DNA of 52,629 nucleotides from a virus. The notes under the pieces were generated by a model. That model saw nothing but the letters and a program-made list of their open reading frames with translations. It did no database searches and had not been told where the DNA came from. How positions within the stretch are numbered: the first letter of the stretch is position 1; each line of letters begins with the position of its first letter. A program made the position numbers and the translations under genes. Where the stretch lies: positions 1-52,629 of IMG/VR virus record IMGVR_UViG_3300009494_000004. One strand, written 5' to 3'. Below are positions 30,585-52,287 of the stretch, piece by piece.

Positions 30585-30606
30585 AGGTTTCCTTTTTTAT
30601 TCACTG

Positions 30607-30629
30607 AATTACTATAAGCAGTAGTAGTT
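30607..30629. promoter_or_regulatory. Operator-like imperfect palindrome AATTACTA-N7-TAGTAGTT
   Basis: aattactataagcagtagtagtt, 23-45 bp upstream of the first late gene. Confidence 0.35.
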
Positions 30630-30656
30630 TGCCGCCTGACATCATTTTGTTTTTGA

Positions 30657-30679
30657 AATTACTACCCGTTGTAGTAATT
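30657..30679. promoter_or_regulatory. Operator-like perfect palindrome AATTACTAC-N5-GTAGTAATT
   Basis: aattactac ccgtt gtagtaatt, with perfect 9-bp arms. Confidence 0.4.
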
Positions 30680-30770
30680 AGCGTTACTGCTCATTTGTGC
30701 AATATAGGTCAAAATGCGTCATAGCCTATCAGCGCAAAGACGATTTCACTCATAGGTATATAGACCTACC

Positions 30771-30999
30771 AGTAGTACCCCTATTTCTTGGAGTTCTTGT
30801 AACTCTTGCAATGGGTTACGGAAGTTGAAATTTCAGTCAAATTGACGAAAAACCGAGTCCTTGTAACTCTTGTAACGACTTACGCGGATTTGAAATATAT
30901 TAAAATAGCTAACTCGTTGCAGGAGTTGCAAGAACTAAGGTTTTCGTTATTACCGTCAGTACGGACCAGTAGCTAACTCGTTGCGGGAGTTGCAAGGAC
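30771..30999 (+). repeat. Element A: 229-bp internally palindromic element with four 23-bp boxes (two forward, two reverse) around an AT-rich centre. Inverted homologue of 51983..52212.
   Basis: Boxes GTYCTTGYAACTCYYGYAAYGRS at 30793..30815 and 30857..30879 (forward), and at 30913..30935 and 30977..30999 (reverse). Box spacing is 64/56/64 bp and the centre is atttgaaatatattaaaata. Flanks also align with the reverse complement of element B. Confidence 0.8.
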
Positions 31000-31089
31000 A
31001 CGAGAACTGAGGGTACTATGCCGGTACTAAGGGGTGCACCGACGTGGGGCACTGCGCCGAAAACGGTGTATATGCAAACTTTTTCACAC

Positions 31090-31638
31090 TCAGCGCCTTT
31101 GTTCCATTTCGTTTATGTCGCGGCGCACCCAGTCGCGAATTTTCCATATTTTCGCCCTGACCGTCGACGCCCCACGCCCAAGGCCGAGTATTTCGGCAAT
31201 CTCTTTGCAGGGTATTTCGTCCGCTCGGAGGGCCATAACTTCGATGGCACGGCCTATCGGGCATCGCATTAGCGACCGTATAATGTCTTCGGCTTTCTCT
31301 TTCGTTAACCTGGCGTTTTCGGTATGCGTCCAGACATTGGTCGCGCTTTGAATTTCAGCGTTCTTTATCTCGGCTATCGTCGGCGAACCGCCCCTCGCCC
31401 GGCGCTGCTGGTGATGACGCCGCGACATAAGCAAGCACGCACCTCTTAACAGGTCAGCAGCGCGGGCCGGGTCGTTCGGCTTACCTATAACGTATGTTAC
31501 GGCGTTTTGCAGAGCGTCTTCGCCGTTCTCGCCCCGCACGCCGAGCTTCCACAGGTAGCCGAGCAGGGCGGGTCGCCTCTTCGCGTACGCCCGACCGACG
31601 GCGTCTGCCCACGTATCGCTATCGCATAATAACGTCAT
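31090..31638 (-). CDS. ECF-like sigma-70 family sigma factor
   Basis: Region-2-like LLGYLWKLGVRGENGEDALQNAVTYVI and region-4 HTH RAIEVMALRADEIPCKEIAEILGLGRGASTVRAKIWKIRDWV. 182 aa, the last gene of the early operon, ATGA-coupled. Confidence 0.65.
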   Translation of the reverse strand: MTLLCDSDTWADAVGRAYAKRRPALLGYLWKLGVRGENGEDALQNAVTYVIGKPNDPARAADLLRGACLLMSRRHHQQRRARGGSPTIAEIKNAEIQSATNVWTHTENARLTKEKAEDIIRSLMRCPIGRAIEVMALRADEIPCKEIAEILGLGRGASTVRAKIWKIRDWVRRDINEMEQRR

Positions 31639-32443: not shown

Positions 32444-33222
32444 CAGATGCTATCCTTGTCTTCGTTGTCTTCGTTGTTTTCGTCATACAAATACGGATCA
32501 ACATGCGTTTCGTCAATTGACGCCAGTCTGTCCCGTATTGCCGTCTGCACGGCTTCAAGCAGATTGTTTAGCTCCGCGAGCGACAGCGCAGACAGGTTAA
32601 GGTTATGCAGGCCGCCAAGTTCCTCTCGCCAAACGAGAAGCATCTCGCCAACCGTCTCGGCGGTTATTTCCACGGCTTTTGGATTCGCGATAAGTACCCG
32701 ACCACCGGACGCGGACAGAGCGGCGCGGTCGGCATCAGCGGATACCTCTTTACGGACCTGTTCCATCAGCATACGAATCTGCGCGACATCGTCATGGATC
32801 GTCTGTACGGTAATGTACCCCTTGCTGCTTTCATGTACCGTATCTTCGCCGCCGCTCTTTTCGATACGTTCCATCACCGTGTCTATTAAATCCGATAACG
32901 CTTGCGCGCGGGCCTTCATTCCAGCCCAATGAACATCCTCAAGTGTGGCCGCCCAAATATCATGTGCTTCGACAAGCTCAGCCTTTGGTATGGCGGAGCA
33001 CCGTTTGAGAAACGTATTGCAGCCGTGCGCCTCTGGATCGAGACCGGAAAACCCGTTTGTTGTCCCGAATGTCGGATCGGTTAGCTCCCTGTAAAGTTCC
33101 GTCGGTTTAGCCCAAGTCGCCAGCGCGTTGACGATGTAATGTCGCACTTTTGCAGGCCAACGCGGCGTCTGTATCCGTGCGTTCTTTTTTGGTCGTCCGC
33201 GTTTCCGTTTTTTGTCAATCAT
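32443..33222 (-). CDS. AT-hook / DUF2280-like DNA-binding protein (possible small terminase; low confidence)
   Basis: KRKRGRPKK AT-hook, then VRHYIVNALATWAKPTELYRELTDPTFG, which resembles the N-terminus of DUF2280-type putative small terminases. Acidic C-terminus. Confidence 0.35.
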   Translation of the reverse strand: MIDKKRKRGRPKKNARIQTPRWPAKVRHYIVNALATWAKPTELYRELTDPTFGTTNGFSGLDPEAHGCNTFLKRCSAIPKAELVEAHDIWAATLEDVHWAGMKARAQALSDLIDTVMERIEKSGGEDTVHESSKGYITVQTIHDDVAQIRMLMEQVRKEVSADADRAALSASGGRVLIANPKAVEITAETVGEMLLVWREELGGLHNLNLSALSLAELNNLLEAVQTAIRDRLASIDETHVDPYLYDENNEDNEDKDSI

Positions 33223-35257
33223 CTGCTTCCGTTTCTTCTGTAAACTGTTTCGGGTCTACACTTAACGGCGCACGCCATACTGTTTTCGTACCGAATGCAC
33301 CCTCTGACTTTCCTATAGTTATACCGAGATTTTCCTGTGCAATCAGCCGTATCCGACGCCAAACAGCACTTTGCGCTTTGCCTCCGTAGACGTTCTTAAT
33401 TCTTGTATTCATGTCGACGGACGCGATCTCGTCTATGCCGTCAAACTGCGAAAGCAGCCAGTCTTCCGTCTTTTTATCGTGTCTATTTTTACCGTTATCG
33501 TCATCGCTGTCCTTTAAGTCAATCTCCCGATAGCCGTCCGTCTCGTTCACATATTGCAGAATTTTATCATTCGACGGCCCTACAAACCTACCAAGGAACG
33601 AAAGTGCCCTTGTGTTTGGGCTACGCTTACCGCCGCCGGACGGACGAAGGTGCGCTATCACGTCAACAGCGGCCTCGATACCGACCGAACCCGCCGACGC
33701 GCCGGACTTGTTCTCGTGATGTATCCACACGACGGCAGCGTCCGCGGCAAGCGCCGCGCTACGCAGTCGCGCGGTCTCCGCCTGCCAAAGCGCGGTTTCG
33801 TGCGACTCAGGAACTTCATGGCTTTCCGAAAAAAGCGGAAAGAGCGTATGGATCGAGTCAAGCACAACTATATCCGGCGCGATTTCCACTATGATGTCAT
33901 ACAGCCCTTTCCACGTTTCCGGCATGATGCCCGGAATCTCGCCGTGCAAAATGCGAACGCGCGCAGCGTCGATATCCGATACGTTTGCCTCTTTGAACCT
34001 GCGGACAACGTCGCCAAGCGGTTCGTCGTTCGACACCCAAAGAACCGTTCCTCCGTTATCAAGAACAGCAAGCGACTCGTACGTGCACAGCGTGGACTTG
34101 CCGGACCTTTTTGCAGACCCGACAAGCAGCGTTATCCGCTGCCTCCAGCTCACCCACCTGCCGACTGTTTTTGGCCGCTCGGTGAGTTGCGGATCGGTCA
34201 TCAGCTCGGCGAGGCTCGGCGGCGGTTTGCGGCCTTTCTTCTCGCCATCATCATCGTCGACGTCGTCCGTATCTCGGAGACCGTTTTTTTTGATATCTAC
34301 GCGCGCTTTTTCCCTCGCCTTCTTTACGGCGTCGTCACTTTCGCCGAAGTCGTAACCCTCGCCCGCGTATGCGCTCCGCACAATCCGTTCCAAGTCATCA
34401 AGTGTAAGTGGTGGATTATTTAATCCATTCCATTCAGACAGAAGCCGTCCGGTCTCGCCGATGTCAATACCGCACTTGCGGCACTCGCTCGCCAGCACAA
34501 TCGCACGGTTGTCCCGACCACCATCTCTGCTTTCTTTGACGCCCTTCGCGAGCAACAAGTTCAACGACTTGCGGTACAGCTCTCTACGGTACTTCGACAG
34601 ACGTGAATCGAGTTCCGGCCAGGTACCTTCATTTTCGTCAACAGGGGGGGAAGTCTCCTCTGCGAACGTTTCGTCCGGCAGCACGAAATAGCCGCCGTTC
34701 GTGCCAACCCGAAAATACTCATCAAAATTTTCATGCGCCCAAGACTTCGTTCTCTTATTATCGTCAAGATAGTATTTCGCGCACGGAAACGCTGGTTGGG
34801 ATATTGTTAGCATCTTTGAATCGCTATCGGGAAACCGCCCAATTAGCCATTTACGCACGATGGCGAATTTTGCTGGGTCGTCAATAGACGGAGACAACGG
34901 AAGCAGCACACGAAACCTCGGTTTATCCGCCGTATGTCGTGCGGTTGGTGCTATAACGTAAATATATTCGGCGAACTCTTTTTCCAGTCCGTCAACAGTT
35001 TTTCCCTCGTCGTAATCAAGTGCAATTGCAGCCATAGACTTTGCATTCGCACGGCTGCGAACACCATCCTTGAATTCCCATACTGTATAGCCACGAGTTT
35101 TCAATACAAGCGCAAGGGACTTGCATCCTTCATCTGTTGATAGATTAAATGTCGTTTCGACATCCATCATACCGCCTGGTTTTCGACGATAGCCAGCTTC
35201 TTCTTTTGACTGAACAGATTCACGGGCGACAAATAATGTTAATTTCATTGATTTCAT
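33215..35257 (-). CDS. Primase-polymerase / RecA-fold (AAA_25, RepA/DnaB-like) replicative helicase fusion
   Basis: Walker A GSAKRSGKST, Walker B-like IVVLDSIH and VWIHHENK. The central RDNRAIVLASECRKCG resembles a PriCT domain. Confidence 0.7.
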   Translation of the reverse strand: MKSMKLTLFVARESVQSKEEAGYRRKPGGMMDVETTFNLSTDEGCKSLALVLKTRGYTVWEFKDGVRSRANAKSMAAIALDYDEGKTVDGLEKEFAEYIYVIAPTARHTADKPRFRVLLPLSPSIDDPAKFAIVRKWLIGRFPDSDSKMLTISQPAFPCAKYYLDDNKRTKSWAHENFDEYFRVGTNGGYFVLPDETFAEETSPPVDENEGTWPELDSRLSKYRRELYRKSLNLLLAKGVKESRDGGRDNRAIVLASECRKCGIDIGETGRLLSEWNGLNNPPLTLDDLERIVRSAYAGEGYDFGESDDAVKKAREKARVDIKKNGLRDTDDVDDDDGEKKGRKPPPSLAELMTDPQLTERPKTVGRWVSWRQRITLLVGSAKRSGKSTLCTYESLAVLDNGGTVLWVSNDEPLGDVVRRFKEANVSDIDAARVRILHGEIPGIMPETWKGLYDIIVEIAPDIVVLDSIHTLFPLFSESHEVPESHETALWQAETARLRSAALAADAAVVWIHHENKSGASAGSVGIEAAVDVIAHLRPSGGGKRSPNTRALSFLGRFVGPSNDKILQYVNETDGYREIDLKDSDDDNGKNRHDKKTEDWLLSQFDGIDEIASVDMNTRIKNVYGGKAQSAVWRRIRLIAQENLGITIGKSEGAFGTKTVWRAPLSVDPKQFTEETEADD

Positions 35258-35510: not shown

Positions 35511-35809
35511 TGTCGTCTCCGTTTAATACGCCGCAACCCCGGCCACAATTTTACAAACGTGTAGTAAAGCAAAAGCGCCAGCCAAACCGCGTTTGCCACA
35601 ACAACGGCTACGCCGCCAATAAATGACAACCACTGTCCGAGATGCGGATAGTAAAACAGGTTCCAGCCGCCCCACGCGGTAAAGAACGCTACCGCAATCC
35701 AACTGACACCCTTAACCTGCCTGTCGATAAGCAATCGACGCACGTTCAGCATAACAAACAACGCGCCGCACGCCTCAAGTATTCCATTGATCGTATCAGG
35801 CCACGTCAT
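35507..35809 (-). CDS. 3-TM membrane protein with a SemiSWEET/PQ-loop-like layout (tentative)
   Basis: 100 aa with three hydrophobic helices. The pattern LN-VRRLL..R.VKGVS, W..NLFYY and VANAV parallels the PQ-..VLKTRS...IS, LW..YG and SNAV of bacterial SemiSWEETs as I recall them. Confidence 0.35.
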   Translation of the reverse strand: MTWPDTINGILEACGALFVMLNVRRLLIDRQVKGVSWIAVAFFTAWGGWNLFYYPHLGQWLSFIGGVAVVVANAVWLALLLYYTFVKLWPGLRRIKRRRH

Positions 35810-36669
35810 TTCGTTTGACTCTCCATCCGTATTCCGAATCCGAGTAGAAGCGCGACAAGTGTATCCTTAATAGTATTGTCTGGTTCGGAAAGGAACCGCG
35901 TCCCAGCGACAGCTTGTACATAGTTCCTTATTACCGATTCAGTTTCATCAATGAGATCCGCCGCCGCGCGCCTGACGAGATGCTCGTCCGCGGCGGCGAT
36001 ACATAAATCCCTCACGTCAGCACGCGGAATGGTAGCCTTTCGCAGTTTTTGCGCGGATTTAACAATCTCCGGATCAAGCGTCAATTCGACAAATCTGTCA
36101 TAAAATAGGTCGGCGGCTTCGTTATAGTCAAGTTTACGGAACGTAAATTCGTCTATAGCACCGTCATACGACATCGCCATGTTGAACTTCAGGTCATCTG
36201 ATGGATTTGCAGACATCAAATGCTTATATTCCGTGACATTCATTATCTGATCTGCCTTTGTAACATAAGGACTTCTTTTAATTGGCAGACCGAATGCCTC
36301 GGCGACAACCGGCTCCCATATCCGTTCCAGCGCTTTATAGGAATTGAGCAACGATTTTAACGGACGCGATACGTCGCCAAGGTACGCTTCCGCCGCGTCG
36401 TGCATAAGCGCTTCAAACTGCAACATCCTCTTCTGCTTGTCTGTCATAGCGGCCAACTCCTCCGGGGGGACCAGAGAAAGCACCAGGTTCGCGCACTCGA
36501 CGGAATGCTCGGCAACACTGTAAAAACCGTTCGTATAGCCGGTAAACCGGCACTGTGCACCCAGCGACTGCGCAATATCCCTTATGTCGATGATACCAAC
36601 ATGCGGCCTTAAAAGGTTAACGGATATCCCACTTCCCGTCGCAATAATCGGTTCGGTTGTTTGTTTCAT
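35806..36669 (-). CDS. HD-domain phosphohydrolase, YfbR-type 5'-deoxynucleotidase / dNTPase-like
   Basis: FYSVAEHS...LMHDAAEAYLGDVSRPLK reproduces the H...HD...D metal-ligand pattern of YfbR-like enzymes. The ATG at 36669 has AAGGAGAG upstream. Confidence 0.65.
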   Translation of the reverse strand: MKQTTEPIIATGSGISVNLLRPHVGIIDIRDIAQSLGAQCRFTGYTNGFYSVAEHSVECANLVLSLVPPEELAAMTDKQKRMLQFEALMHDAAEAYLGDVSRPLKSLLNSYKALERIWEPVVAEAFGLPIKRSPYVTKADQIMNVTEYKHLMSANPSDDLKFNMAMSYDGAIDEFTFRKLDYNEAADLFYDRFVELTLDPEIVKSAQKLRKATIPRADVRDLCIAAADEHLVRRAAADLIDETESVIRNYVQAVAGTRFLSEPDNTIKDTLVALLLGFGIRMESQTK

Positions 36670-36686
36670 GTTTCTCTCCTTAATAT

Positions 36687-37220
36687 TTACGGTATCCAAC
36701 CATGTTTTTTGTCGTATTTTTCCGCACCGCCACGTTTAAACGGAGCGTCCGCAGGGCGGTTATCAAACTCCGGTTTGATGTCTACGAAGTCGAGGAGGAA
36801 AAGCAGGCAGCAAATAGCGTGCGCGAGGTGGTGCAGTCCCGATTCCGGATCGTATTCTTCGCCACCGTACCAGGCCCAAATATGACGTAACGCCGCGCCA
36901 ACGTATCGAGACCATTTAAGGCCACACCGGTACGAATTTGCCTCATACTTTTTTGCACCGTACGTGAGGACAGCGACGACCTGCCGTAGTGGGCCGGGCA
37001 TTAGTAACTCGAACATCAGCTTTCCGTCGTCGTACTTCGGTGCCTCAAATTTAGATGTTGCCGTTTCCCCCGCCACTGTTGACGACATAACCCGTTTTAG
37101 TGGCGGTTGCCGTAAACTATTTTTAGGTTTGTCAAACAATGCTATAAGTTGCGCAACCGGACCGAGTTTGATTTTTCCAGGTTTGATTTTTTCAATTTTC
37201 TTTTTCTTCAACGGATTCAA
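36687..37220 (-). CDS. MazG-like all-alpha NTP pyrophosphohydrolase (DUF5664 / dATP-dGTP diphosphohydrolase-type domain)
   Basis: KYDDGKLMFELL...VLTYGAKKYE.NSY......SRYVGAALRHIWAWYGGEEYDPESGLHHLAHAICCLLFLLDF matches that phage domain. The start is uncertain (TTG at 37220 or 37211). Confidence 0.6.
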   Translation of the reverse strand: MNPLKKKKIEKIKPGKIKLGPVAQLIALFDKPKNSLRQPPLKRVMSSTVAGETATSKFEAPKYDDGKLMFELLMPGPLRQVVAVLTYGAKKYEANSYRCGLKWSRYVGAALRHIWAWYGGEEYDPESGLHHLAHAICCLLFLLDFVDIKPEFDNRPADAPFKRGGAEKYDKKHGWIP

Positions 37221-39264
37221 CTCCTTTTTCTACGGACGTGCAGCTGCTCCACGAGTCGCCCGCCTCGATATCGACCGCAAAGGGGACAAACCCTTCGACA
37301 TCAATTTCCATAGCGTCGCGTATCATCGGCACAAGTCTGTCGCGATACTTTTTCGGTGTATGAAATAACAGTTCGTCGTGGACCGTTAATAGCATTTCGA
37401 CCGGGAACTTCGCAGGGACAATGATTCTATCATAACATCGTTTTATTGCGATCTTCATAATATCGGCGGCGGTGCCCTGCACTTCCTGGCTGATGGCGCG
37501 GCGTTCCCATTTCGCGCGCTCACCGGGAACGTCCGACCAGATTCCAGTCATCCCGCCGTCGTTTTCGTTGCCAGTCAACGGACGAATGCGACCAAAGTAA
37601 GTCTTCGCCCATCCACGCTGAAACGCAAGGCGCTTCCTACGACCAAGCCACGCAGTAAGTGCGGGCACAGTTTCGAACCATTTATCGATAAATTTCTGCG
37701 CTTTGCTTTCACTAATGTTGTATAGAAGAGCAAACGCATACGCGGTTTGTCCAAAAAGTGCTCCAAAATTTTGGCCTTTCGCTTTTTTATACTCTTCTTC
37801 AGTATAGTCCGCGCCGAACATTTTGATAGCGGTCGCAACGTGCGGCGATTCACCTTTCGCAAATGCATCAATCCATACTTTTTCTTTCGCAAAACTCGCC
37901 GGTATTCTAAGTTCAATCTGCGAATAATCTGCATCGACAAATGTCCAATCCTCATCCGATATAAACGTTGCACGGATATTAACTGGTACGTAGTCACCAG
38001 CGCACTTTGGAATGTTTTGTAAATTCGGTCCCGAACATGAAAATCTACCTGTTGCCGGACCGACTGACCAAAACGACGCGCGTAGTTTTCCGTCGTCATC
38101 CATTGCCTTTGGTATCTTCGATGTGAAACTGGATCGCAGCGTGCCAAGGCTTGATCCGTTCAATAACATTTCAACTACTGAATGCTTATTTTTCAATGAA
38201 TTGATAAACTTCTTTCCAGTAGCGCCGTAACCTGACGCCGTGTACGCTACCGGCTCCAATAACCGCCCGTCGACATCAATAAGTGCTGTTTTCTTATCGT
38301 GCGAAAGCGTTTTTTTGTTCCAGTTACCGAAAAGCAAAACGGATTTCTGCATCCAGCTTTTGAGGTTAATTTCCGTCGGTTTGCCGTACCGCTCCTCGGA
38401 CGCTATCTCATTCACCCGTCCGTTGATGACTTCGTACGCCTGCCCAAGCACCTTGTCCTGATCGGCAAGCAAGTCCAAGTTTATCCGTACGCCCGCCTGC
38501 TCCATATGGATGACTGGACGCACGACCTCATGCTCAAGGTTCCATGTTCCGCGCTGTTTTTCTTTCGTCTCAGCCAGTTCGGGAAGAAGCCATAATCTCC
38601 AGGTGAAATCAGCGTCCTGACAGCCGTAAATACGTTGCATCTTATTGTTAAGTTTGAGGAAGTCGCCGGGCATAAACTTTGACTTCGGGACACCGATTAT
38701 CTTGCTCATCGACAGCGTCGACCCGACGCCGGTGAGGTGCTTTTCGGCGAAACCTTTTAACCCTCCCGTCATTTTGTTATTCGGCCACGTAAGGTGGACG
38801 CCGATGAACACATCCTGGAAATCGTGGACTTCAACTCCGTGGTTCTCCAAAATGGGGATATCGTATTTCGCGTTTGCCATGACGAGCGTACTTTTCTTTG
38901 CCTTTACGGCGAGCGCCCTTAAACATGCCTTTGAGGGCATTGGAACCCAATAGGCCTGTGCGGGTTCGCAGCATACCGAAAAGCCGTACAGCTCCGTCTT
39001 GCCGGGCCGTATATCGAGACCGCTTGTTTCCGTATCTACCGCAAACTCGTTACCAAATCCGTTAAGTACCTTCCGTAATTCGGTAGCCGTTTTAATTTCA
39101 ACGTACCGGCAACCTTTATCCATTGCTTCGGCGTATTGAACCTGAAGCCCGGCTTCTTTCTCCAGCTTCAGTTGCGTCTTGGTTGGCGGCTTGATCTTTT
39201 TTTCTTTTTTCCTTTTAATTTCAGGCACTGTACGCCTCCAATGCGGCTTCCGCAGCCTCGACAT
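37192..39264 (-). CDS. Family-A DNA polymerase with a 3'-5' exonuclease domain
   Basis: Exo I FAVDTETSGL, motif A DADYSQIELRI, motif B KGQNFGALFG and motif C TVHDELLFH. Confidence 0.85.
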   Translation of the reverse strand: MSRLRKPHWRRTVPEIKRKKEKKIKPPTKTQLKLEKEAGLQVQYAEAMDKGCRYVEIKTATELRKVLNGFGNEFAVDTETSGLDIRPGKTELYGFSVCCEPAQAYWVPMPSKACLRALAVKAKKSTLVMANAKYDIPILENHGVEVHDFQDVFIGVHLTWPNNKMTGGLKGFAEKHLTGVGSTLSMSKIIGVPKSKFMPGDFLKLNNKMQRIYGCQDADFTWRLWLLPELAETKEKQRGTWNLEHEVVRPVIHMEQAGVRINLDLLADQDKVLGQAYEVINGRVNEIASEERYGKPTEINLKSWMQKSVLLFGNWNKKTLSHDKKTALIDVDGRLLEPVAYTASGYGATGKKFINSLKNKHSVVEMLLNGSSLGTLRSSFTSKIPKAMDDDGKLRASFWSVGPATGRFSCSGPNLQNIPKCAGDYVPVNIRATFISDEDWTFVDADYSQIELRIPASFAKEKVWIDAFAKGESPHVATAIKMFGADYTEEEYKKAKGQNFGALFGQTAYAFALLYNISESKAQKFIDKWFETVPALTAWLGRRKRLAFQRGWAKTYFGRIRPLTGNENDGGMTGIWSDVPGERAKWERRAISQEVQGTAADIMKIAIKRCYDRIIVPAKFPVEMLLTVHDELLFHTPKKYRDRLVPMIRDAMEIDVEGFVPFAVDIEAGDSWSSCTSVEKGVESVEEKEN

Positions 39265-39988
39265 CGCGCTCGTATAGATGCAGATTAAGCGCGATATTCG
39301 TGAACCGTCCGCAGGGTCGGCTAAGCTCGTCGGCCATCGCCATCTGGAGTCCGTGCATCGTGAACACGTCGTTGCGAAGACCTGTATTTACATCCTGCGA
39401 GCGGAATACAACTGTCGCACATAAACCGCCATTCCTTATCGTAAACTGAAGGCAGATACAGCACGGAAAATCTTTCGTCGGAACCGCCTTGTGCTTGACC
39501 TGATTTACGTTCAACACGACCTGCCTGCTGTCCGAGTCTTTTCGTAGCTTGTCAACCGCCCATATCCATTGGTTTATATCTGTAACGTAGTAGCCCGTGT
39601 CGCCCTCGTGCTTCGACGGCACCGTCATATCGAATCGCTGACTGAATAAATACTGTCCGTACGCACTATTGACACGTATACCGTCGTCGGAAAATTGCTC
39701 CCAAAGCTTTGTAAAACTTTTTCTCGTCACCGGATGTACAAGGTCGGCAATTCTGTCAGATCCGCTCAAGTACCAAGCAAGTTCGGCCTCAGCGTACGGC
39801 ACCCTCGTGTGAAACGGCTTTAACGTTGACACAAAATGCTTGTCCTGATAACCGTTTATATAATCAAGCGTAAGAATGTAATTGTTTACCTCACGCACGG
39901 CCAAACTACGCGGCGCGGACTTCTGCCCAGCCAATGTCGCCCTAATGGCATCATAATACTCTTTATTGAAATCTGTAAATAGCGACAT
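39221..39988 (-). CDS. Thymidylate-synthase-fold enzyme with the dCMP-hydroxymethylase-type active-site signature (deoxycytidylate C5-modifying enzyme)
   Basis: It aligns with E. coli ThyA across ELAWYLSG, NSAYGQ, DSDSRQVV, FPCCICLQF and FRSQDVNTGLRND. The residue 31 positions after the nucleophilic Cys is Asp (RND, as in T4 gp42 D179), not the Asn of dUMP-specific enzymes. The ATG at 39988 has AGGAGAG upstream. Confidence 0.65.
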   Translation of the reverse strand: MSLFTDFNKEYYDAIRATLAGQKSAPRSLAVREVNNYILTLDYINGYQDKHFVSTLKPFHTRVPYAEAELAWYLSGSDRIADLVHPVTRKSFTKLWEQFSDDGIRVNSAYGQYLFSQRFDMTVPSKHEGDTGYYVTDINQWIWAVDKLRKDSDSRQVVLNVNQVKHKAVPTKDFPCCICLQFTIRNGGLCATVVFRSQDVNTGLRNDVFTMHGLQMAMADELSRPCGRFTNIALNLHLYERDVEAAEAALEAYSA

Positions 39989-40454
39989 CGACTCTCTCCT
40001 GTATCTTTTCAGTTTCCCAGTTAAGCAAACCCCCGTTCCATTTCTGTTCGAATCTGCAATCCTCAAACTTATTTAACGGTACGGAACTACGCCCGGCGTT
40101 TTTTGCGACTTTCGCAGCGGCCCGCCACCTGTCAACGGGAACAGCATACGCGCACTTGTTGCGCGGACCTTTGTAATGCACGATAATGAGAAATCCCACA
40201 CCGCCCGCGCGCTCAATATCTTCCAGTTCGTCAAGCTGACTTTCACGAACTCCACGTAACGGCTGAGAAATACCGTGTTTTACAATTTTGAATTCAAACC
40301 CGACCGCTATTCCGTCCCAACAGGCAATAACGTCAACAGCGCGTGTCCCCGTATCAAGTCCATACCGGGGATCTGCGATCTTATGACACCAAAGCTCCGA
40401 CTTGACACGTCGCCAGCTTTTCGTTATTTGGTTTGTTATCTCGGTTTCTCTCAC
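39963..40454 (-). CDS. PD-(D/E)xK nuclease, Holliday-junction-resolvase-like
   Basis: VDVIACWDG..VGFEFK gives a D...E.K catalytic motif. GTG start with GGAGA upstream. Confidence 0.5.
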   Translation of the reverse strand: MRETEITNQITKSWRRVKSELWCHKIADPRYGLDTGTRAVDVIACWDGIAVGFEFKIVKHGISQPLRGVRESQLDELEDIERAGGVGFLIIVHYKGPRNKCAYAVPVDRWRAAAKVAKNAGRSSVPLNKFEDCRFEQKWNGGLLNWETEKIQERVDVAIYRFQ

Positions 40455-40814: not shown

Positions 40815-41107
40815 ATCTTAACCCTCATTACTTTGACTTTTTTCTGGACGTACGACAGCGCCTCTACGGTATTCCGTATTGTGTAGAAACCCGTACGCCA
40901 CGCGATTACGATAGGCTTACCGTACCGGGTGCGGTCCGACGCTGCCCATGCGTCAAAATGGTCTTTGAATTTTTTCGTCGTTTCGTCTTCAGTGGGGGCA
41001 TTGACCATAACCGCATTCAACTGCGCAACCATCATCCTCTTAAACGAGGTAAGGTCCATAAAATCCCCAAGCGAAAATCTGTATTTTGTTTTTTGTTTCT
41101 TACTCAT
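40811..41107 (-). CDS. Hypothetical protein
   Basis: The ATG at 41107 overlaps the upstream stop (ATGAGTAA). The track start is 41137. Confidence 0.45.
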   Translation of the reverse strand: MSKKQKTKYRFSLGDFMDLTSFKRMMVAQLNAVMVNAPTEDETTKKFKDHFDAWAASDRTRYGKPIVIAWRTGFYTIRNTVEALSYVQKKVKVMRVKI

Positions 41108-42098
41108 TGTTTTGTGTCCACATTCCGTAGCCTGCATGGTTCGGACTGATTATCCTCGGCAACGTGCCGGATTCCTGTATGGCCCGCATAACCTGCCAAT
41201 ACTCTATGACGCGCTGCTCCAGCGTATGGTAGCGTAGCACATTCTGCTGTCCGCACGCCGCCATCTCCTCGCGAATATCATCATGCTCTAAGTAGAAATC
41301 TATTTTACGCACCAGGTCGTCAAACGTGTCATCGTGCGTAACACAATGCGTGCCCTTCTCCCACATATAGTCGAAATTCTGCACCTTGTGGTTGATAAAC
41401 GCCACGCCGGAACCCATCGCGTTATACGTACGATTACTGACGACAAACGGACCGGGATTCAGAAATAGGCTGCGCTGTATATTGAACGCCACTTTGCTTT
41501 GAGCATAGGCCTCGGCCATATTCCATTCACGAATCTCGCCGGGTCGCCCTATTTTGTCGAGGACGAATTTGCATTTGTACCGACGGCTAAGTTCATTAAG
41601 CCATTTTCTTCTAATCTTATCGGTCGATCCTATGAAGCACAAGTCGTAGATTTCCTTCGACAAATCAAGCCGCGTCGGCAGCGCGCCGTCTTTCATGCAG
41701 GAACGGTGATCGAAGTATTGAGGCATCCACAGCACGGTCGGCGCGAGGTCGCAGTACCGGCGAGCCGTCTCAAGTATGGAGAACACGAGCACGTCGGCCC
41801 GGTTCGCAAGCTGACGACGCCACATCCTGTCGCGCGTCCGCTCCGTCATGTCGGGATACCAGAACAGAAGCTTCGCACCGCTTTTTCGTATTTGGCGGTA
41901 GTAGCGCCGGAAGTCCGGACGTAGCGCAAAGCAGAACACCCAATCGGGCTTATACGACTCAAGCACGGGTAGCATCTCCTCTGGATGCGCGCGCGACCCG
42001 GTCAACATAACGTCGAATCCCTGACGTTTCGCTTCCTTGTACAAATACGGACCGGCGAACCGCTTCTGAAATCCGCACGCCCAAACGAGAACCTTCAT
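41100..42098 (-). CDS. Glycosyltransferase, CgeB/GT1-like (GT-B fold)
   Basis: [10 protein letters not shown]..., LCFIGS..., VAFNIQR....[16 protein letters not shown] resemble the DUF3880/Glyco_trans_1_2 (CgeB) family. ATGA-coupled start at 42098. Confidence 0.55.
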
Positions 42099-42343
42099 AC
42101 GGATACTCCATGACATTTTTTGTACTTAAGACCGGAATCGCACGGACACGAATCGTTCCTGCCAATCTTATAATAGGGACGCCGATAGGTTCCACGTACG
42201 GATGAATCCCAGAACGTCATACACTTACGCCCGTATTTGTCCCTCTTGTCCGGTTTCCGCTTTTTGGGTTGCGCGGTTACGCTTTCACGCTTACGCAGAA
42301 AACTAAATAGCCACGCAATTATTTTCGCAAAAATCTTCATCAT
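42095..42343 (-). CDS. Small protein with an N-terminal hydrophobic helix and a C-terminal SEC-C zinc motif
   Basis: [17 protein letters not shown] is a SEC-C motif. ATGATGA coupling to the upstream gene. Confidence 0.55.
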
Positions 42344-43179
42344 AGACTGTCCTTTAGCATGCGTTTCGCCTCGTTGACTATGACCGACGAATCCGGCAAC
42401 CACATTTTCTTTTGTCTCCAGTGCGCATCGCCTGGACTTTGCATTGTCTTGACGCGCGTATTAAACGGATTCCAATGACTTTGAACCCGTAGACTGTGGT
42501 CGCGGCACGTTTGCCAACACAACTGTGGAAGCCCGCACAGTGTCGCCAGGTGTGCTGGTCCCGACTGCGGACTAATGATGAGTTTCGACGACGCCATTAA
42601 ATCCGTTAATGCGGTAAGGTTAATATCTCGGCAATCCGTGCCCCCTACGTGCAAAGACGACTCAGATTTTCCAATACATACGACGCTGTATCCGGCGCGC
42701 ATAAGCGATTCTGAAACTATCTTTGCATGCTTTTTCGGCCAATTCCTAAATCCGGTGCTGCATTTGTCGGTATCGCGAACATGGAGCAAAACATCCGGTA
42801 CAAGGCAACCGTCGACCTTTTTGCCCAACCGAATAAGCGACTGCCGCGTAGACCAATACTGTGAATCCCACCACCGCTGCGGATACGCATCCGGTTTTAT
42901 CCATTCCGCGTTTGGCGCAAAATCCTCAATGTAAAAGCGAAAATTCGTGATTTTCTGTCTATCGACAGATCGGTCGTAACACATATCAGTTTGGTTGTCG
43001 CCTTCGCCGAAATGTAATATGTCGTCGGCAAAGTCCGTATATAGTGCATCGTGTCCAGCCCGACACGCGACGACGACTCGGTCGTACTTCGGCGCAATTT
43101 TCCTGAGAAACCCCTGCCAACAAAACAGTTCCCAACCGAGCTCGCCTATGAATGGTCCGGCAAAAAGTGTCTTCATCAT
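42340..43179 (-). CDS. Glycosyltransferase, GT9 (heptosyltransferase)-like GT-B fold
   Basis: N-terminal [12 protein letters not shown] and C-terminal [19 protein letters not shown] resemble GT9 enzymes. AAGGAAA Shine-Dalgarno. Confidence 0.5.
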
Positions 43180-46536: not shown

Positions 46537-46654
46537 GATCCAGAAAAAACCGTAACACGTTGAAACACAATACAATAGCGTAATCGACGAAAGGTCAACC
46601 GCAGAAAAAATGCAAAAAAGTGTGGGTTTTTAGCCATATTATGTAGATCGCTAC

Positions 46655-47926
46655 CTATACTTCCTCACGTAGCCATTCAAGACGAGAAAAATCTTGTATA
46701 ATCATGTTATCGTTGTCATAAATAACGCGAGATATTTTCGCATCAAAGGGACACGCAGCCCGTGTAAGCGCCGCCGCGACGGCCCGGATAAGATCCTCTG
46801 ACGTGTTTACTGGAACGTTCTGCGTAACGTGCGCGGGTTTCGCACCTTTGTCGTAACTGAGTTTGAAATCGTCCGGCAGACCCATAAAATCCATACACTC
46901 CCGCACGGACATAAATCTCGACTTGGTCGGATGCTTCCACCACCTCATCCCGTGGATCATCAGGGTTGGCGTGAGATCGCGCACAAGCACCGGAGTCTCC
47001 CGGCGAAAACCAAGACCCTGGTCCGTCTTTGCCTTGACCTTAATTACGATGTCGTTCCACTGTTTCGCGTTCGCCCGGTACTCGTCACCGCCCCTGACAC
47101 GCGGACGGACCGACTCGGCGGCAAGCCACGCAATCAGCTCCGAAAGTAAACCCTGCTTGACGGCTAACGAAATAACGTAACTTTTGGCGTTTGGCTCTCC
47201 CCCAATACTAACATTTTTCGAATCTATCCAGCCCTTGCGACGCGCATAACGAATCAAGGAGTCATTGGCGTAATTACTATTAAGAAACTCCTCGTCGTGC
47301 GGTCGCGTACCGAATACTTTACCGCATCTTTCGAGAAACTCCGAAACTGCCAACGGCCTTCCCCTTGTCTCCAGGGCGATAATCCTGGGCGTACCCTTCC
47401 ACAAAAGGCCGTACGTACGCCTTCGCTTCTGCGGTATCCCGTGGTTCGCCGTATTGACCTTTACCATAGTGAGTGAGTAGCCCAGGCTTTTTGCAAGCTC
47501 GGCAACACGCTTCGCCATCGGACGCCCCTTGTCCGTCGCCAGCAGGGGCGCGTTTTCAAATACGTGTACACCCGGACTGAAAGCCGTTATGGCGTAGCGA
47601 ATTGTCCGCGTAATCCAGTCGTTCGTTGGACAGTCGCAGCCTTTCGTTGGTGAATTATTCCCCATCGACAGACCGCCACACGGCGGAACGGAATGCGTGA
47701 TATCTATACGAGAGAATTTATCCGTGTTCGTTACGAAATACGGAACCTTTGGCCAGTAGCTCCTGAGACTTGACGAGTGCGCGCCGCCGAATACATTTCC
47801 GGCCCCGTCAAGCATATCAACAATGACCTCCGGCAGTCGGCCGATTGCGCGCGCCGCGCCAATGGCGAGTCCACCCGTGAGCGGCATGATGGCTGCATGC
47901 GTTAAATTTGTTTTCCGTCTCAGCAT
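46655..47926 (-). CDS. Divergent DNA cytosine-C5 methyltransferase-fold protein
   Basis: Motif IV-like PPCGGLS (canonical PCQ), motif VI FENAPLL (ENV), motif VIII QKRRRTYGL, and C-terminal RECMDFMGLPDDF and QNVPV (canonical GNAVP). Confidence 0.6.
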   Translation of the reverse strand: MLRRKTNLTHAAIMPLTGGLAIGAARAIGRLPEVIVDMLDGAGNVFGGAHSSSLRSYWPKVPYFVTNTDKFSRIDITHSVPPCGGLSMGNNSPTKGCDCPTNDWITRTIRYAITAFSPGVHVFENAPLLATDKGRPMAKRVAELAKSLGYSLTMVKVNTANHGIPQKRRRTYGLLWKGTPRIIALETRGRPLAVSEFLERCGKVFGTRPHDEEFLNSNYANDSLIRYARRKGWIDSKNVSIGGEPNAKSYVISLAVKQGLLSELIAWLAAESVRPRVRGGDEYRANAKQWNDIVIKVKAKTDQGLGFRRETPVLVRDLTPTLMIHGMRWWKHPTKSRFMSVRECMDFMGLPDDFKLSYDKGAKPAHVTQNVPVNTSEDLIRAVAAALTRAACPFDAKISRVIYDNDNMIIQDFSRLEWLREEV

Positions 47927-49000: not shown

Positions 49001-50305
49001 CTATCTTCCCATAAGCTTATTCAAATAACGGTCCACGTTTACCTGAAGCCGCGCAAGCGGGCCGCGCGTGGCGTTCCAAACGAACGCCATCGTCCCGCGC
49101 TTCTGCCAATTAAAGGACTTCAGCCGATGCCATTCGTTCGGCGCAGTTATTCCCGGCAGATACTCGACAGACACGCCTTGCTCTTCCATTGTGGACGGCT
49201 TGCTGGAGCCTTTACGGTGCTGGTCACCGAGGTGCCATTCGCGGTATCCGTTCTTCGTCCGCGCCCACGCCTCCGGCATTTCGTTCGCCATAAGCGCCGC
49301 GAGCCGTATTGGCGCGACGCTGTGCCCGTGCTCGTACCCTATGAGATTGCATCCGTATTCATGAAATTTGTACGGCGACGACGTTGCGTCCACCGTCACC
49401 TCCGGGTCGTTCTTGTAGTACGCCTGAAGCACACGGCCAAGCATGAACGACGTCGTCCGGTCGTGGTTTCCAGGAATGAAATAAAGACGAACCGGCGCAA
49501 TCTCGCGCACTCTGTCGACAATCTGTATAGCGAGCGCTTCGCCGGTCACGAACGTGTTGTAGTATGCGTCCGCCTCCGGCTGCCCGGTGTGCTGCGTAGT
49601 TTCCTGCCATATCGTGTCGGAGTGGAAGAAATCGTTTCCCATTGGCATCACAATTTCTTCAAATGGCCCGAACGAAGCGGCGAGGCTGATTATTTCCTCC
49701 AACGACTCCATGACCATCTGCGCACAAAACTCCGGCGACCATTCAGCGTCGGACGCGGGCTTGAACGTTCGCATCCCATAGTGCGGATCCATAAGCGCGA
49801 TCTCGAGCGCGTTACGTTCATTCTTCTGCCCTAACTTCAGCCGTCTGATTTTCGGTTTCGGCGACTTACTCTCCAGTTGCATAAGCAGCTTACCGACGGC
49901 GTCCTCGACGACCTCCGGCACGGCGCGCTCAAACACTACTTTAAGTCGAACATTCTGAACTGTAAACGGCTTGTCCTTTTTTTCCGGTTCGCGAATCTTC
50001 ATCGTCACGTCGTAACTGGAATGCTCAAAACTTTTAACGCGCCACACCGCCATATCGACATTCAGTTCACATATAATATCGTCAATAGTTGCGAACCTGC
50101 ATCCGTCGGCTTCGACAACCCACTGACCACTTTTCTTTTGCTGCTTAAAGACGTTTTTCTGAATTTCGGTTTTGTCGTCCAAACGGTCAAACCTCCTCTT
50201 ATAAACATTTTCAGATATACCGAGGCTCCGCGACGCGGCGGCTTTATTACCAAATTTTACGTACGCTTCACGTATTTGTTTGTCGGTAGCTTTTAGTTTT
50301 GCCAT
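49001..50305 (-). CDS. Calcineurin-like metallophosphoesterase with an N-terminal HTH-like region
   Basis: LMDPHYG (DxH), MGNDFFHSD, IPGNHDR (GNHD/E) and GYEHGH. N-terminal AASRSLGISENVYKRRFDRL. Confidence 0.6.
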   Translation of the reverse strand: MAKLKATDKQIREAYVKFGNKAAASRSLGISENVYKRRFDRLDDKTEIQKNVFKQQKKSGQWVVEADGCRFATIDDIICELNVDMAVWRVKSFEHSSYDVTMKIREPEKKDKPFTVQNVRLKVVFERAVPEVVEDAVGKLLMQLESKSPKPKIRRLKLGQKNERNALEIALMDPHYGMRTFKPASDAEWSPEFCAQMVMESLEEIISLAASFGPFEEIVMPMGNDFFHSDTIWQETTQHTGQPEADAYYNTFVTGEALAIQIVDRVREIAPVRLYFIPGNHDRTTSFMLGRVLQAYYKNDPEVTVDATSSPYKFHEYGCNLIGYEHGHSVAPIRLAALMANEMPEAWARTKNGYREWHLGDQHRKGSSKPSTMEEQGVSVEYLPGITAPNEWHRLKSFNWQKRGTMAFVWNATRGPLARLQVNVDRYLNKLMGR

Positions 50306-50652
50306 TAGCGTTTCCTAATTCCAAATGTTTTGTTGAATTGTTTTTTCATCCTAATAAGTTTTGATGAACTCTGCGCGGATATGAACCGTCCGCGAAGAAA
50401 TACATTTAACTTCCGTGCGATAGTAACAGGATTCAAAGTTTCATATTTCCAAATAACGCAAACGCGCCAACCCGTGTTTTCTAATTTTTCAACTGTATTA
50501 TTACGTATACGCAAAAAACAGCTATACATAAATATAACTGCTTTCCATTTTCGCAATACGATATTTGGTTTACCCGGTAGTCCACAGCCACCAAGACGGA
50601 AACGAAAACCCATGCGATGAAGAAGTGAACGGACAATAACTTCTGACTTCAT
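50305..50652 (-). CDS. Degenerate Vsr/DUF559-like protein (catalytic and zinc residues missing)
   Basis: E.IVRSLLHRMGFRFRL....LPGKPNIVL...KAVIF parallels Vsr E..L.SLL...G..FR....LPG.PDFV.....VIF, but the catalytic Asp is Asn and the GCFWH.H.C segment is replaced or shortened. The gene is AT-rich (~36% GC). Confidence 0.4.
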   Translation of the reverse strand: MKSEVIVRSLLHRMGFRFRLGGCGLPGKPNIVLRKWKAVIFMYSCFLRIRNNTVEKLENTGWRVCVIWKYETLNPVTIARKLNVFLRGRFISAQSSSKLIRMKKQFNKTFGIRKR

Positions 50653-50653
50653 A

Positions 50654-51322
50654 TTAACTTCTGACTTCGATGGCGTAGACGTCCACCTCGATATCACCAT
50701 GCAGGCCAATATGGTCAAAGAACCGCCTAATGACGCCTGTTACGGACTTCTTAAGTTTCGCGTTCCCATACACGGTCGTCATGGGCATTGTCCCCTGCAA
50801 CGTCATCCCTTGCAACGTTACGACGTATTTGGCGCTGATGCGCCGTCGTTCCTTGTAATCAATAGCGTTCGATTTACCGAATTTTTGGCAGGCAACCGCC
50901 GAATATTTCTCCTCTTTGTCGAGAACGGCCAAACGTCCAGCGTCCGTCACAGGCGCGACGTCCGTCACGGTCATCTTGCTACCAGCAGCGTCGACGGACG
51001 CGCGACATACGGCTGCGACGTATTTGTTGATCTGTAAAAACACGCTCTTCGATATCTGCGTAGGTCCGCCCCTTACCTCAATAACCGCCTCCCGAACGGC
51101 GGACTCGCGCACCAGCCCTGTCGGGACATTTGTGCTTTTGACCTTCAGGTGGAACTTCGTCACCCTCTTCTCGTTGCCGTCCGTCAAGCACATTGTTTCA
51201 ATCGTTTCGTAAAGATGTCGCCGCAGGGCGTCGAGGAACTTTGCCGATACGCGGACGTCGTTCGTTTTCCGCAGCACGCGCATGAAGGATTTCACGGGCC
51301 GTTCGAACAAAAGGTTCTTCAC
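50654..51322 (-). CDS. Hypothetical protein
   Basis: The GTG at 51322 overlaps the HNH gene's TGA (GTGA), with AGGA 5 nt upstream. The track start is the TTG at 51352. Confidence 0.45.
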   Translation of the reverse strand: MKNLLFERPVKSFMRVLRKTNDVRVSAKFLDALRRHLYETIETMCLTDGNEKRVTKFHLKVKSTNVPTGLVRESAVREAVIEVRGGPTQISKSVFLQINKYVAAVCRASVDAAGSKMTVTDVAPVTDAGRLAVLDKEEKYSAVACQKFGKSNAIDYKERRRISAKYVVTLQGMTLQGTMPMTTVYGNAKLKKSVTGVIRRFFDHIGLHGDIEVDVYAIEVRS

Positions 51323-51882
51323 AGTAATCCTAACTCTTTGTTTGTAACGCAAAAAGATTTGTTAAGTTTAATTGCAGTGTCAACAGCGCACGCCGCTTCG
51401 ATAGCGGTAGAAAAATGACTGATAGAAACCCGCCGCTTATTTTGTTGAGTGTAAGCCCGGTAACGACCGTTTGATCGTTGTTGAACACCGCGAAATCCAC
51501 TTATTCCAATCTTTGCGCCACGACTATTGCGTATTAAAGCTTTGGGGCGATTGTGGTTTTCTTTCGCTGTTTCATAACAGAGATTATCGGCTCTGTTATT
51601 AGTACAACACTCATCAATATGTGAAGTCTGTAATCCTAAAGGGCAGGGACCGAGCCAAGCGCACGCTACAAGTTGGTGAATAAAATGAATATGTGGTTTT
51701 CCGTCACGGTATAGGCTTACTACCACCCGACCATTCATTTTTCCACCTGTTTGCTGCCTTAAAATACGCGGACATTTGTAATCCAATAATCTTTTCCATA
51801 AACGTACCCGACCTAATGATGAAACTTCATAATCCGGGTATCCTTCAATTTGTCGCCATTCTTCGTTTGACTGATTTTCCAT
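51319..51882 (-). CDS. HNH homing endonuclease with NUMOD4 and AP2 DNA-binding modules
   Basis: EEWRQIEGYPDYEVSSLGRVR (NUMOD4), HIDECCTNNRADNLCYETAKENHNR (HNH) and GFRGVQQRSNGRYRAY...FSTAIEAACAVDTA (AP2). AT-richer than the genome. Confidence 0.7.
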   Translation of the reverse strand: MENQSNEEWRQIEGYPDYEVSSLGRVRLWKRLLDYKCPRILRQQTGGKMNGRVVVSLYRDGKPHIHFIHQLVACAWLGPCPLGLQTSHIDECCTNNRADNLCYETAKENHNRPKALIRNSRGAKIGISGFRGVQQRSNGRYRAYTQQNKRRVSISHFSTAIEAACAVDTAIKLNKSFCVTNKELGLL

Positions 51883-51890
51883 ACGCTAAG

Positions 51891-51910
51891 GTAAGCTAAT
51901 TCCGTGCCAA
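51891..51910 (-). promoter_or_regulatory. P2: sigma-54-type -24/-12 promoter-like motif TTGGCACG-N4-TAGCTTAC (minus strand)
   Basis: The reverse complement reads ttggcacggaattagcttac. The GC of the -12 element lies 13 nt before the ATG at 51882. The motif sits 73 bp downstream of element B. Confidence 0.45.
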
Positions 51911-51982
51911 CCCGATAAAAAATTTGCCTATAATGTATCGCGCCCGCGCGCGTAAAGCACCCATAGCACCCCCCACCCCCCA

Positions 51983-52212
51983 GTCCTTGTAACTCCCGCA
52001 ACGACTTAGCTACTCGTCCGTACTGGGGGCAGTAACAAAAACTCAAGTCCTTGTAACTCCCGCAACGACTTACGCGGTTTAATATATCTCAAATTCCCGT
52101 AACTTATTGCAGGAGTTACAAGGACTTGGTTTTTCCCTTTTTTACGGCTACTTCCGTACAGCCGTAACCCGTTGCGGGAGTTGCAAGAACTCCAAGAAAT
52201 AGGGGTACTACT
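51983..52212 (-). repeat. Element B: inverted homologue of element A (30771..30999), with four 23-bp boxes around an AT-rich centre
   Basis: Boxes at 51983..52005 and 52047..52069 (gtccttgtaactcccgcaacgac, twice), and at 52103..52125 and 52168..52190 (reverse orientation). The centre tttaatatatctcaaat is the reverse complement of the element A centre apart from one base. The flank aggggtactact is the reverse complement of agtagtacccct at 30771. Confidence 0.8.
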
Positions 52213-52287
52213 ATCGGGCTATATAAGCCCTTAAGAAACGCTATCGTCTATTCATCAGTGGAATCCCGCGCCCGACACCAAAAGATG

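Follow-up and report, generated by a model that had tools for sequence, protein, structure and literature searches.

Sigma-54-type promoter motifs and a duplicated four-box element in the control regions of an IMG/VR phage genome

The control region that heads the minus-strand early operon of the phage recorded as IMGVR_UViG_3300009494_000004 in IMG/VR raises two questions: which RNA polymerase reads the sigma-54-type motif located there, and what role is played by the palindromic array of four boxes lying upstream of it. The window, meaning here the whole stretch of 52,629 nucleotides that was analysed, is a complete or nearly complete phage genome, its final 342 bases being the same as its initial 342 bases. 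With moderate confidence, the joint best explanation is that the motif (P3) is a genuine sigma-54-class promoter and that the array beside it is a separate four-box regulatory platform, not a dedicated sigma-54 enhancer. Three copies of the motif were identified:

1125-1144 (+): P1, predicted sigma-54-class promoter (TTGGCACAGTATTCGCTTAC), heading the plus-strand gene cluster at 1184-2657
46536-46517 (-): P2, predicted sigma-54-class promoter (TTGGCACGGGATTCGCTTAC), in the 145-bp gap after the C5-methylase gene, with an AAGGAG-ATG start about 30 nt downstream
51910-51891 (-): P3, predicted sigma-54-class (-24/-12) promoter (TTGGCACGGAATTAGCTTAC), at the head of the minus-strand early operon

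The pattern TGGCAC-N5-TNGC matches the window three times where 0.29 matches are expected, a number reached in none of 100 shuffles, and all three copies fit the 20-nt pattern TTGGCAC-N5-TNGCTTAC (TTGGCAC-N5-TnGCTTAC) with zero mismatches. Each copy is intergenic and oriented toward its downstream gene, the intergenic share of the window being roughly 9%. An earlier sequence-only reading had recognised the motif at 51910..51891 and assigned it to the head of the early operon. Both points hold, as P3 stands in a non-coding control region and is co-oriented with its downstream gene; the copies at 1125-1144 (+) and 46536-46517 (-) had not been linked to it, nor had the second four-box element (30773-31018) described below. 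At P3, TGGCAC occupies 51909-51904 (GG at 51908-51907) and the -12 element 51898-51895 (GC at 51896-51895), giving a predicted start at about 51883. This is one or two bases ahead of the ATG of the HNH gene, so that the HNH mRNA would be nearly leaderless, while at P1 and P2, with predicted starts at about 1152 (+) and 46509 (-), the predicted leaders run for about 28-35 nt to AAGGAG-ATG. The extended consensus of the copies (TTGGCACGG..TT.GCT) agrees with YTGGCACGrNNNTTGCW; P3 (TTGGCACGGAATTAGCT) shows a single mismatch to it (A for T at -14). A TTCAAC-N4-TTAC sequence at 46551-46565 (-), 29 nt upstream of the P2-type TGGCAC, is kept in the window and in the relatives L002 and L004, with a similar one in L008. 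Although this sequence looks like the latter half of a box of the four-box element, it falls below the box-matrix threshold and was rejected as a box.

Relatives were gathered via the neighbouring exonuclease-like gene, the protein of which is 84% identical in L002, 74% in L004/L005, 60% in L003 (32% GC), 55% in L008 and 46% in L016; L010 lies on the same contig as L002. The scan of related phages that had been suggested as a check returned the motif at matching positions in L002, L003 and L004/L005, and also in L008 and L016. All three copies are present in L002 (P3 at 8553, P2 at 14077 and P1 at 7891 (-)), one of them with CGGCAC, and the P2 copy is kept in L004/L005 (L004 2303). The early operon of L003 is headed by a P3 orthologue (TTTTGGCATACTATTTGCTTACC at 3720) embedded in unrelated sequence, and the L008 copy reads TGGCATAATTCTTGCT. 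The -12 element is TCGC at P1 and P2 and TTGC in L003, L004, L008 and L016. In L016 (8587-8793 of GTDB contig CALOAN010000046.1, labelled uncultured actinomycete), three perfect TGGCACG-N4-TTGC sequences occur within 200 bp, two in tandem on the same strand with no obvious downstream gene and one divergent, before a small open reading frame (ORF). The GG-N10-GC frame is found in all 12 instances (three in the window and nine in relatives); as this frame was in the search pattern, the evidence lies in the number and placement of the matches. Positions outside the pattern are mostly conserved among the 12 as well, namely G at -21, G/R at -20, T at -16, a T preceding the GC, and T/A following it (as part of TTAC in the window). 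P1-P3 are thus likely to be sigma-54-class promoters read by the host enzyme, because the copies are conserved, unselected positions are conserved with them, a sigma-70 reading fits most of them poorly (see below) and no phage-encoded RpoN, AAA+ activator or single-subunit RNA polymerase was found in the window.

The four-box element is present twice in the window, as Element B upstream of P3 and as Element A between the last early gene and the late operon, about 21 kb apart. Its parts are as follows:

51911..51981: spacer of 71 bp between P3 and the first box, containing an alternating CG stretch and, adjoining the -24 element on its upstream side, a T-tract
51982-52008/52009 (+): box B1 (AGTCCTTGTAACTCCCGCAACGACTTAG); its centre lies upstream of the predicted P3 start by about 113 bp
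52046-52072/52073 (+): box B2, with 27 nt identical to B1
52074..52098: conserved, asymmetric centre (TTTAATATATCTCAAATTCC) of 25 bp, 64% A+T in Element B
52099-52126 (-): box B3, in inverted orientation
52164-52191 (-): box B4, in inverted orientation
52194-52211: nearly invariant flank AAGAAATAGGGGTACTAC (GAGAAATAGGGGTACT), followed by a short palindrome or hairpin
52216-52230: short palindrome GGGCTATATAAGCCC, with TAGGTCTATATACCTA as its counterpart in Element A
30773-31018 (inverted): Element A, a second whole four-box copy collinear with the reverse complement of Element B, with box starts at 30792 (+), 30856 (+), 30909 (-) and 30973 (-)
Orthologues of Element A: L010 5540-5780; L011 10680-10925; L098 6950-7200; L099 1410-1665

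A 21-mer of the box, allowing three mismatches at most, matches seven sites against 0.00 expected. Element B had been described from its letters as four 23-bp boxes, two in each orientation, spaced 64/56/65 bp around an AT-rich centre within a 230-bp palindrome starting 73 bp upstream of the motif. The number and orientation of the boxes and the palindrome itself were confirmed; its dimensions are revised. The boxes are 27-28 nt long, the motif-to-first-box gap is 71 bp, aligned boxes start 64/53/64-65 bp apart, and the pseudo-palindrome, reaching to the flank at 52194-52211 and the hairpin at 52216-52230, measures about 250 bp. Because a spacing of 64/53/65 bp amounts to 6, 5 and 6 helical turns, all four predicted sites are on the same face of the helix. 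As for the centre, its A+T content is 64-76% in the window and 44% in L002, and the core TATATCTC(A/G)AAT of the sequence TATATCTCAAATCCGCG is present in every copy. Since the core is conserved in this way, the centre is read as a specific site and not merely as an A+T-rich spacer. Neither a promoter nor an integration host factor (IHF) site with an acceptable match was seen by eye inside it.

Seven copies of the element were identified (A and B in the window, B in L002, and A in L010, L011, L098 and L099), and the five of these that were aligned run collinearly for about 300 bp. Their modules follow one another as box 1, box 2, asymmetric centre, inverted boxes 3 and 4, flank and short palindrome, the arms of the last changing together between elements. 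Identity among copies is 54-93% in the boxes, 64-92% in the centre and 74-100% in the right flank, as against 27-76% in the spacers, which are constant in length. Boxes, centre and flank are therefore conserved while the spacers drift at fixed length, the pattern expected of protein-binding sites held in helical phase, and a cooperative protein-DNA assembly on these predicted sites is well supported. By eye, B1 and B2 are partial dyads (AAGTCnTTG-N9-CAAnGACTT) and the other boxes show merely TTG-N9-CAA. The spacer between P3 and the first box is conserved in L002, both in length (73-74 bp from box to TGGCAC) and in much of its sequence, and L003 carries a variant box array that ends about 60 bp upstream of its P3 orthologue. 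A search of IMG/VR and JGI metagenome contigs with the box patterns, in collections that do not include the sample of the window, gave 0 matches.

Two conserved sequences adjoin Element A. The leader of the late operon, 3' of the element, is kept in the window (30540-30772, -), L010 (5780-5990), L011 (10920-11160), L098 (7200-7450) and L099 (1665-1850). It has the palindrome TAGGTCTATATACCTA and then two ATTACTAC-N5-GTAGTA(AT) palindromes, continues with GGGGAAACC-N17-GTTATAGTATTAG, which has the look of an extracytoplasmic function (ECF)-type promoter and is replaced by TTTACA-15-TATATT in L098, and closes with AAGGAG, where a small conserved ORF begins. From their sequence, these palindromes look like a second operator system, separate from the four boxes. 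On the other side, just upstream of Element A and directly after the stop codon of the last early gene, lies a conserved GTGTGAAAAAnTTTGCATATAC (31060-31090, -), which occurs at matching positions in L011, L098 and L099 irrespective of which gene is the last early one. It does not have the GG required for a sigma-54 site.

Under the joint explanation, P1-P3 would head a divergent small cluster (P1), an internal early unit (P2) and the early DNA-metabolism and replication operon (P3). Host RNA polymerase carrying sigma-54 would bind them and a host enhancer-binding protein would open them, a host activator being required because the phage lacks a gene for an AAA+ activator of its own. The four boxes would be the assembly site of a sequence-specific protein, which is probably encoded by the phage, would bind cooperatively and so control neighbouring promoters: Element B occupies the place of an upstream regulatory region of P3, and Element A would precede a late promoter lacking a sigma-54 motif. 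The element may thus act on P3 via a factor that also works at a promoter of another kind, or its main role may lie elsewhere. Taken by itself, the proposal that the element is a regulatory platform for such a protein is plausible and is put forward tentatively. Speculative candidates for the box-binding protein are encoded at 50654-51352 (the first conserved early protein), 49001-50305 and 31090-31638. The gene at 49001-50305 (-), labelled 'DNA repair exonuclease' (phrog_704; alignment A1), encodes a metallophosphoesterase with invariant DxH, GND, GNHD and GDQH motifs. Its N-terminus holds a three-helix helix-turn-helix (HTH; GNKxxAAxxLGxxR), which scores as Fis-type HTH_8 or PucR HTH_30 in several homologues, and is followed by a beta-rich middle domain. 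A model of this protein of moderate quality (predicted local distance difference test, pLDDT, 66.5) gave nothing significant in a Foldseek search of PDB, and a profile search of PDB sequences gave nothing.

Several observations weigh against the joint explanation. The -12 element of P3 is TAGC instead of TTGC. The genome bin of L016 is labelled actinomycete, and actinomycetes generally lack sigma-54, though the binning of phage contigs is unreliable. Among 80 more distant relatives by the exonuclease (645 kb), the motif is not enriched (6 found against 7.9 expected); it is therefore a subclade trait and not a property of all phages with the exonuclease gene, as would be expected if the motif tracks the host. 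With regard to the element, the platform reading rests on position and conservation, and a replication origin would account equally well for two copies per genome and for inverted sites on either side of an A+T-rich centre.

The main alternative, considered somewhat unlikely, is that the two elements act as replication origins, or that one is an origin and the other a further cis-acting replication site, and that an initiator such as the primase-helicase (33215-35257) binds the inverted boxes and melts the centre. Inverted pairs of sites flank a centre that is A+T-rich in the window, the two copies lie in non-coding promoter regions far apart on the genome, the phage encodes PolA along with the primase-helicase, and the arrangement recalls HSV oriL/oriS, SPP1 oriL/oriR and P4 ori/crr. 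However, the centre is short (25 bp) and conserved by sequence rather than composition, as its low A+T content in L002 illustrates, and the boxes have no link to the primase-helicase. Cumulative GC skew declines steadily and has no turning point, at the two elements or elsewhere, which is uninformative since nearly all genes are on one strand. Moreover, the iteron-like repeat region at 1-1000 is an alternative origin candidate. This nested repeat region, with a 501-bp period, lies between Element B and P1 (52288..52629, continuing at 1-1000). In it, 300 nt are 100% identical between copies and GCCTCATACTTTTC occurs seven times, once inverted relative to the others. The 342-bp terminal overlap begins exactly at a repeat-unit boundary, leaving the repeat copy number in the assembly uncertain, and the homologous region of L002 is single-copy. 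Possible roles for the repeats are those of an iteron-type origin, a packaging site and a non-coding RNA locus. Scanning the window for Rfam families and for tRNAs gave no match.

In the model proposed by the sequence-only reading, a host AAA+ activator binds the four boxes, oligomerises, loops to the sigma-54 holoenzyme and opens P3. The geometry on which it was built stands. Measured from the predicted P3 start, the boxes are centred at about -113, -177, -230 and -295, of which the first two fall within the classical range of upstream activating sites, so that sites about 80-200 bp upstream of a sigma-54 promoter are indeed found at P3; L002 shows an identical proximal distance, and in L003 it is about 98 bp. 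The centre of the proximal box is some 95 bp (about nine helical turns) from the centre of the -24/-12 element, and the T-tract adjoining the -24 element is conserved. It was also correct that no AAA+ activator with a GAFTGA loop is seen in the phage, a point in favour of a host activator: six-frame translation of the window shows no GAFTGA, ESELFGH or RpoN-box motif, no ORF of at least 230 aa scanned with Pfam matches Sigma54_activat (the three such ORFs outside the scan are capsid, portal and terminase by PHROGs), and no plausible ORF of the phage contains a canonical Walker A. What does not hold is an exclusive association with sigma-54 promoters. The element also precedes the late operon, where none of the five contigs carrying Element A has a sigma-54-type motif close by, and a four-box array is found neither at P1 and P2 (window and L002) nor at the three L016 motifs. 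The element is therefore not a dedicated sigma-54 enhancer. Its weakly dyad boxes of 27-28 nt, 5-6 turns apart, also differ from the adjacent dyads of typical activator sites, and no cognate activator is known for them. Overall, this model is unlikely.

For the promoters, the alternative is that the 20-nt motif is not read by sigma-54 at all, being instead a sigma-70-type promoter with TTGGCA as its -35, or else a site at which a phage-specified factor or operator protein acts. Such a reading draws on P1, which overlaps a sigma-70-like TTGGCA-16-TATAGT (called by a consensus scan at 10 of 12 matches), on the TATATA just 3' of the motif in P1- and P2-type copies and on a phage protein with weak likeness to ECF sigma factors. 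For a sigma-70 promoter, -35 and -10 hexamers 16-18 bp apart were sought, a usable -10 being one with A2, T6 and at least five of six matches. Only the two P1-type copies possess one; eight of the 12 instances score three or fewer of six, and none is usable at P3 of three phages or in the L004, L008 and L016 copies. A promoter scan of the control region found no other sigma-70-like promoter. Furthermore, the conserved block T.GCTTAC would sit inside the sigma-70 spacer, whereas all 12 instances keep GG-N10-GC together with the extended sigma-54 consensus. The motif lacks palindromic symmetry, a search of the phage for a gene encoding an RNA polymerase found none, and the sigma-like gene, standing last in the early region, therefore cannot serve early promoters. 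A non-sigma-54 reading is thus quite unlikely.

The likeness of this last early-region gene (31090-31638, -; P0121-P0123) to ECF sigma factors is weak but consistent: its product matches the E. coli RpoE structure (E=0.17), TIGR02937 over nearly its full length (E=0.033) and SigW models, and it carries the JGI name 'sigma24 family'. Only three homologues were identified among 5.8 billion proteins. L098 and L099 have a D12-type methyltransferase in its place. Its predicted structure was discarded as unusable (pLDDT 50).

That the element is a mobile palindromic repeat of the miniature inverted-repeat transposable element (MITE) type, or a recombination site pair, with no role in transcription or replication is highly improbable, because both copies hold the same syntenic positions in each related contig covering them and box spacing and sequence are strictly conserved while spacers drift, indicating selection on function; no recombinase or transposase gene was found in the phage and no inversion of the 21-kb segment in relatives, against which stand an imperfect palindrome of about 260 bp, inverted-repeat ends (GGTACCCCTATTTC ... 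GAAATAGGGGTACC in L002, L098 and L099), two inverted copies per genome, and a spacer 1 more alike between the window copies (76%) than between orthologues, suggesting gene conversion.

Almost all genes of the phage are on the minus strand, from 51882 down to about 2650, the small plus-strand cluster at 1184-2657 being the exception. Their order from P3 and Element B is as follows:

51319..51882 (-): HNH/NUMOD4/AP2 homing-endonuclease gene, directly downstream of P3 and not at the matching position in L002 or L003
next on the minus strand: a 232-aa protein of no assigned function, a Vsr-like endonuclease and the exonuclease-like metallophosphoesterase
continuing on the minus strand: C5 cytosine methylase, nucleotide-modification enzymes, PolA and primase-helicase
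farther along the minus strand: terminase, portal, capsid and tail genes

The spot held by the HNH gene is taken by a small Cys-rich ORF in L002 and by nothing in L003, and seems to be an insertion hot spot. A dense set of modification genes (35806-37220, 39221-40066, 41100-43179, 46655-47926, 50305-50718, 24906-25688 and 2646-3338) comprises an HD/YfbR-like nucleotidase, a protein with a dATP/dGTP diphosphohydrolase N-domain (MazZ-like), a thymidylate-synthase-like enzyme, three glycosyltransferases, the C5 cytosine methylase followed by the Vsr-like endonuclease, and an FkbM methyltransferase; none of the modification genes seen in the window is PurZ-like. From this gene content the phage DNA is probably hypermodified, for example with a glycosylated hydroxymethyl-pyrimidine, and promoter recognition could be affected by modified bases. 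The second gene of the late operon is a GroES (Cpn10) homologue (29774-30307, -) with a Cys-rich C-terminal extension of about 60 aa, kept in L011, L098 and L099. Elsewhere, a perfect 84-bp tandem repeat (2.5 copies, 100% matches; 16837-17042) lies within a 515-aa virion-region ORF (16527-18074), and 12.5 copies of the hexamer CGGAGA (5638-5712) lie within a 1072-aa ORF.

No close relative was identified among GenBank phages by a DNA search (megablast) with the 2.6-kb control region, and PolA and exonuclease matches among these phages reach at most 33% identity (best PolA about 30%). The IMG/VR relative L001 (57% identity) differs in gene order and has neither the sigma-54-type motif nor the boxes. 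Labels of metagenome-assembled genomes (MAGs) holding distant relatives conflict (Planctomycetota, Ignavibacteria, Desulfobacterales, Burkholderiaceae and an actinomycete), and a host assignment from them was rejected because they disagree.

Sigma-54 promoters stay closed until an ATP-driven activator opens them. If P1-P3 are such promoters, the start of infection would be tied to the signalling state of the host, and possible hosts would be restricted to bacteria with rpoN. Near-consensus, conserved sites at early operons would offer a clean system for studying viral use of the enhancer-dependent polymerase, and the four-box palindrome, being duplicated and strictly phased, makes a clearly delimited cis element. 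In the boldest reading, a clade of modified-DNA phages runs its whole early programme from consensus sigma-54 promoters with its own phased four-site enhancer, capturing a host AAA+ protein or a new phage activator, for which the Fis-type HTH-metallophosphoesterase (49001-50305) is a speculative candidate. If true, it would make this clade the first phages with enhancer-dependent early transcription, and the second enhancer copy would time the switch to late genes; the reading is decidedly improbable.

Among known systems, the origins HSV-1 (herpes simplex virus 1) oriL/oriS, SPP1 oriL/oriR and P4 ori/crr have inverted initiator boxes around an A+T-rich spacer, some of them duplicated. Elements A and B are like them in their two inverted box pairs, short A+T-rich centre, location in promoter regions and two distant copies, and differ in that the centre is conserved by sequence and no initiator is tied to the boxes.

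The switch region of phage Phi29 holds four p4 sites between the divergent promoters A2c/A2b and A3, and the complex formed there represses the early promoters and activates the late one. Elements A and B would resemble it in having several phased sites for a small phage regulator in non-coding DNA between divergent transcription units, and Element B at the start of the early region together with Element A at the early/late boundary may be analogous to the p4 switch region. In contrast, the p4 sites are inverted repeats of another sequence, and a Phi29 genome has just one such region; neither sequences nor proteins are homologous between the two systems, and no gene of the window was recognised as p4-like or p6-like, so that the analogy is solely functional.

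Classical sigma-54 enhancers include those of glnAp2 with NtrC sites, nifH with NifA TGT-N10-ACA sites and pspA with PspF sites. P3 and Element B share with them a -24/-12 promoter and repeated sites 100-200 bp upstream in helical phase, and the P1 motif (TTGGCACAG-N3-TTCGCT) is close to the glnAp2 sequence. The window boxes differ in being longer and weakly dyad, are separated by 5-6 turns and together form a large palindrome with a conserved centre, and their array also occurs at a promoter without a sigma-54 motif and has no activator linked to it.

To our knowledge, known phages use sigma-70, their own polymerase or their own sigma factor, and Pseudomonas phage YuA is the sole documented sigma-54-dependent phage; its sigma-54-dependent promoters are reportedly the subject of Ceyssens et al. 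2008, J Bacteriol 190:1429. We know of no four-box element reported for YuA. The sequence-only reading had called sigma-54-dependent early transcription unusual for a phage, which is a fair remark with YuA as precedent for the use of this factor. YuA resembles the window phage, to which it is not closely related, in being tailed, in lacking its own RNA polymerase, in having three sigma-54-type promoters and in that no phage AAA+ activator has been reported. According to two reports, YuA development depends strictly on host sigma-54 (PMC5053324) and one sigma-54-like start site has been recovered (PMC10914365). Three -24/-12 promoters are annotated in its GenBank record (NC_010116); they belong to the late region, which covers virion and lysis genes, lie partly within genes and match the consensus poorly (for example, AGGCAC-N5-CTGGC). 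The YuA sites are thus weak and late, whereas the promoters of the window are intergenic and head early units. What sets the window phage apart from YuA is the near-consensus sequence of the sites, their early placement, their conservation across related uncultured phages and the conserved multi-site element that neighbours them.

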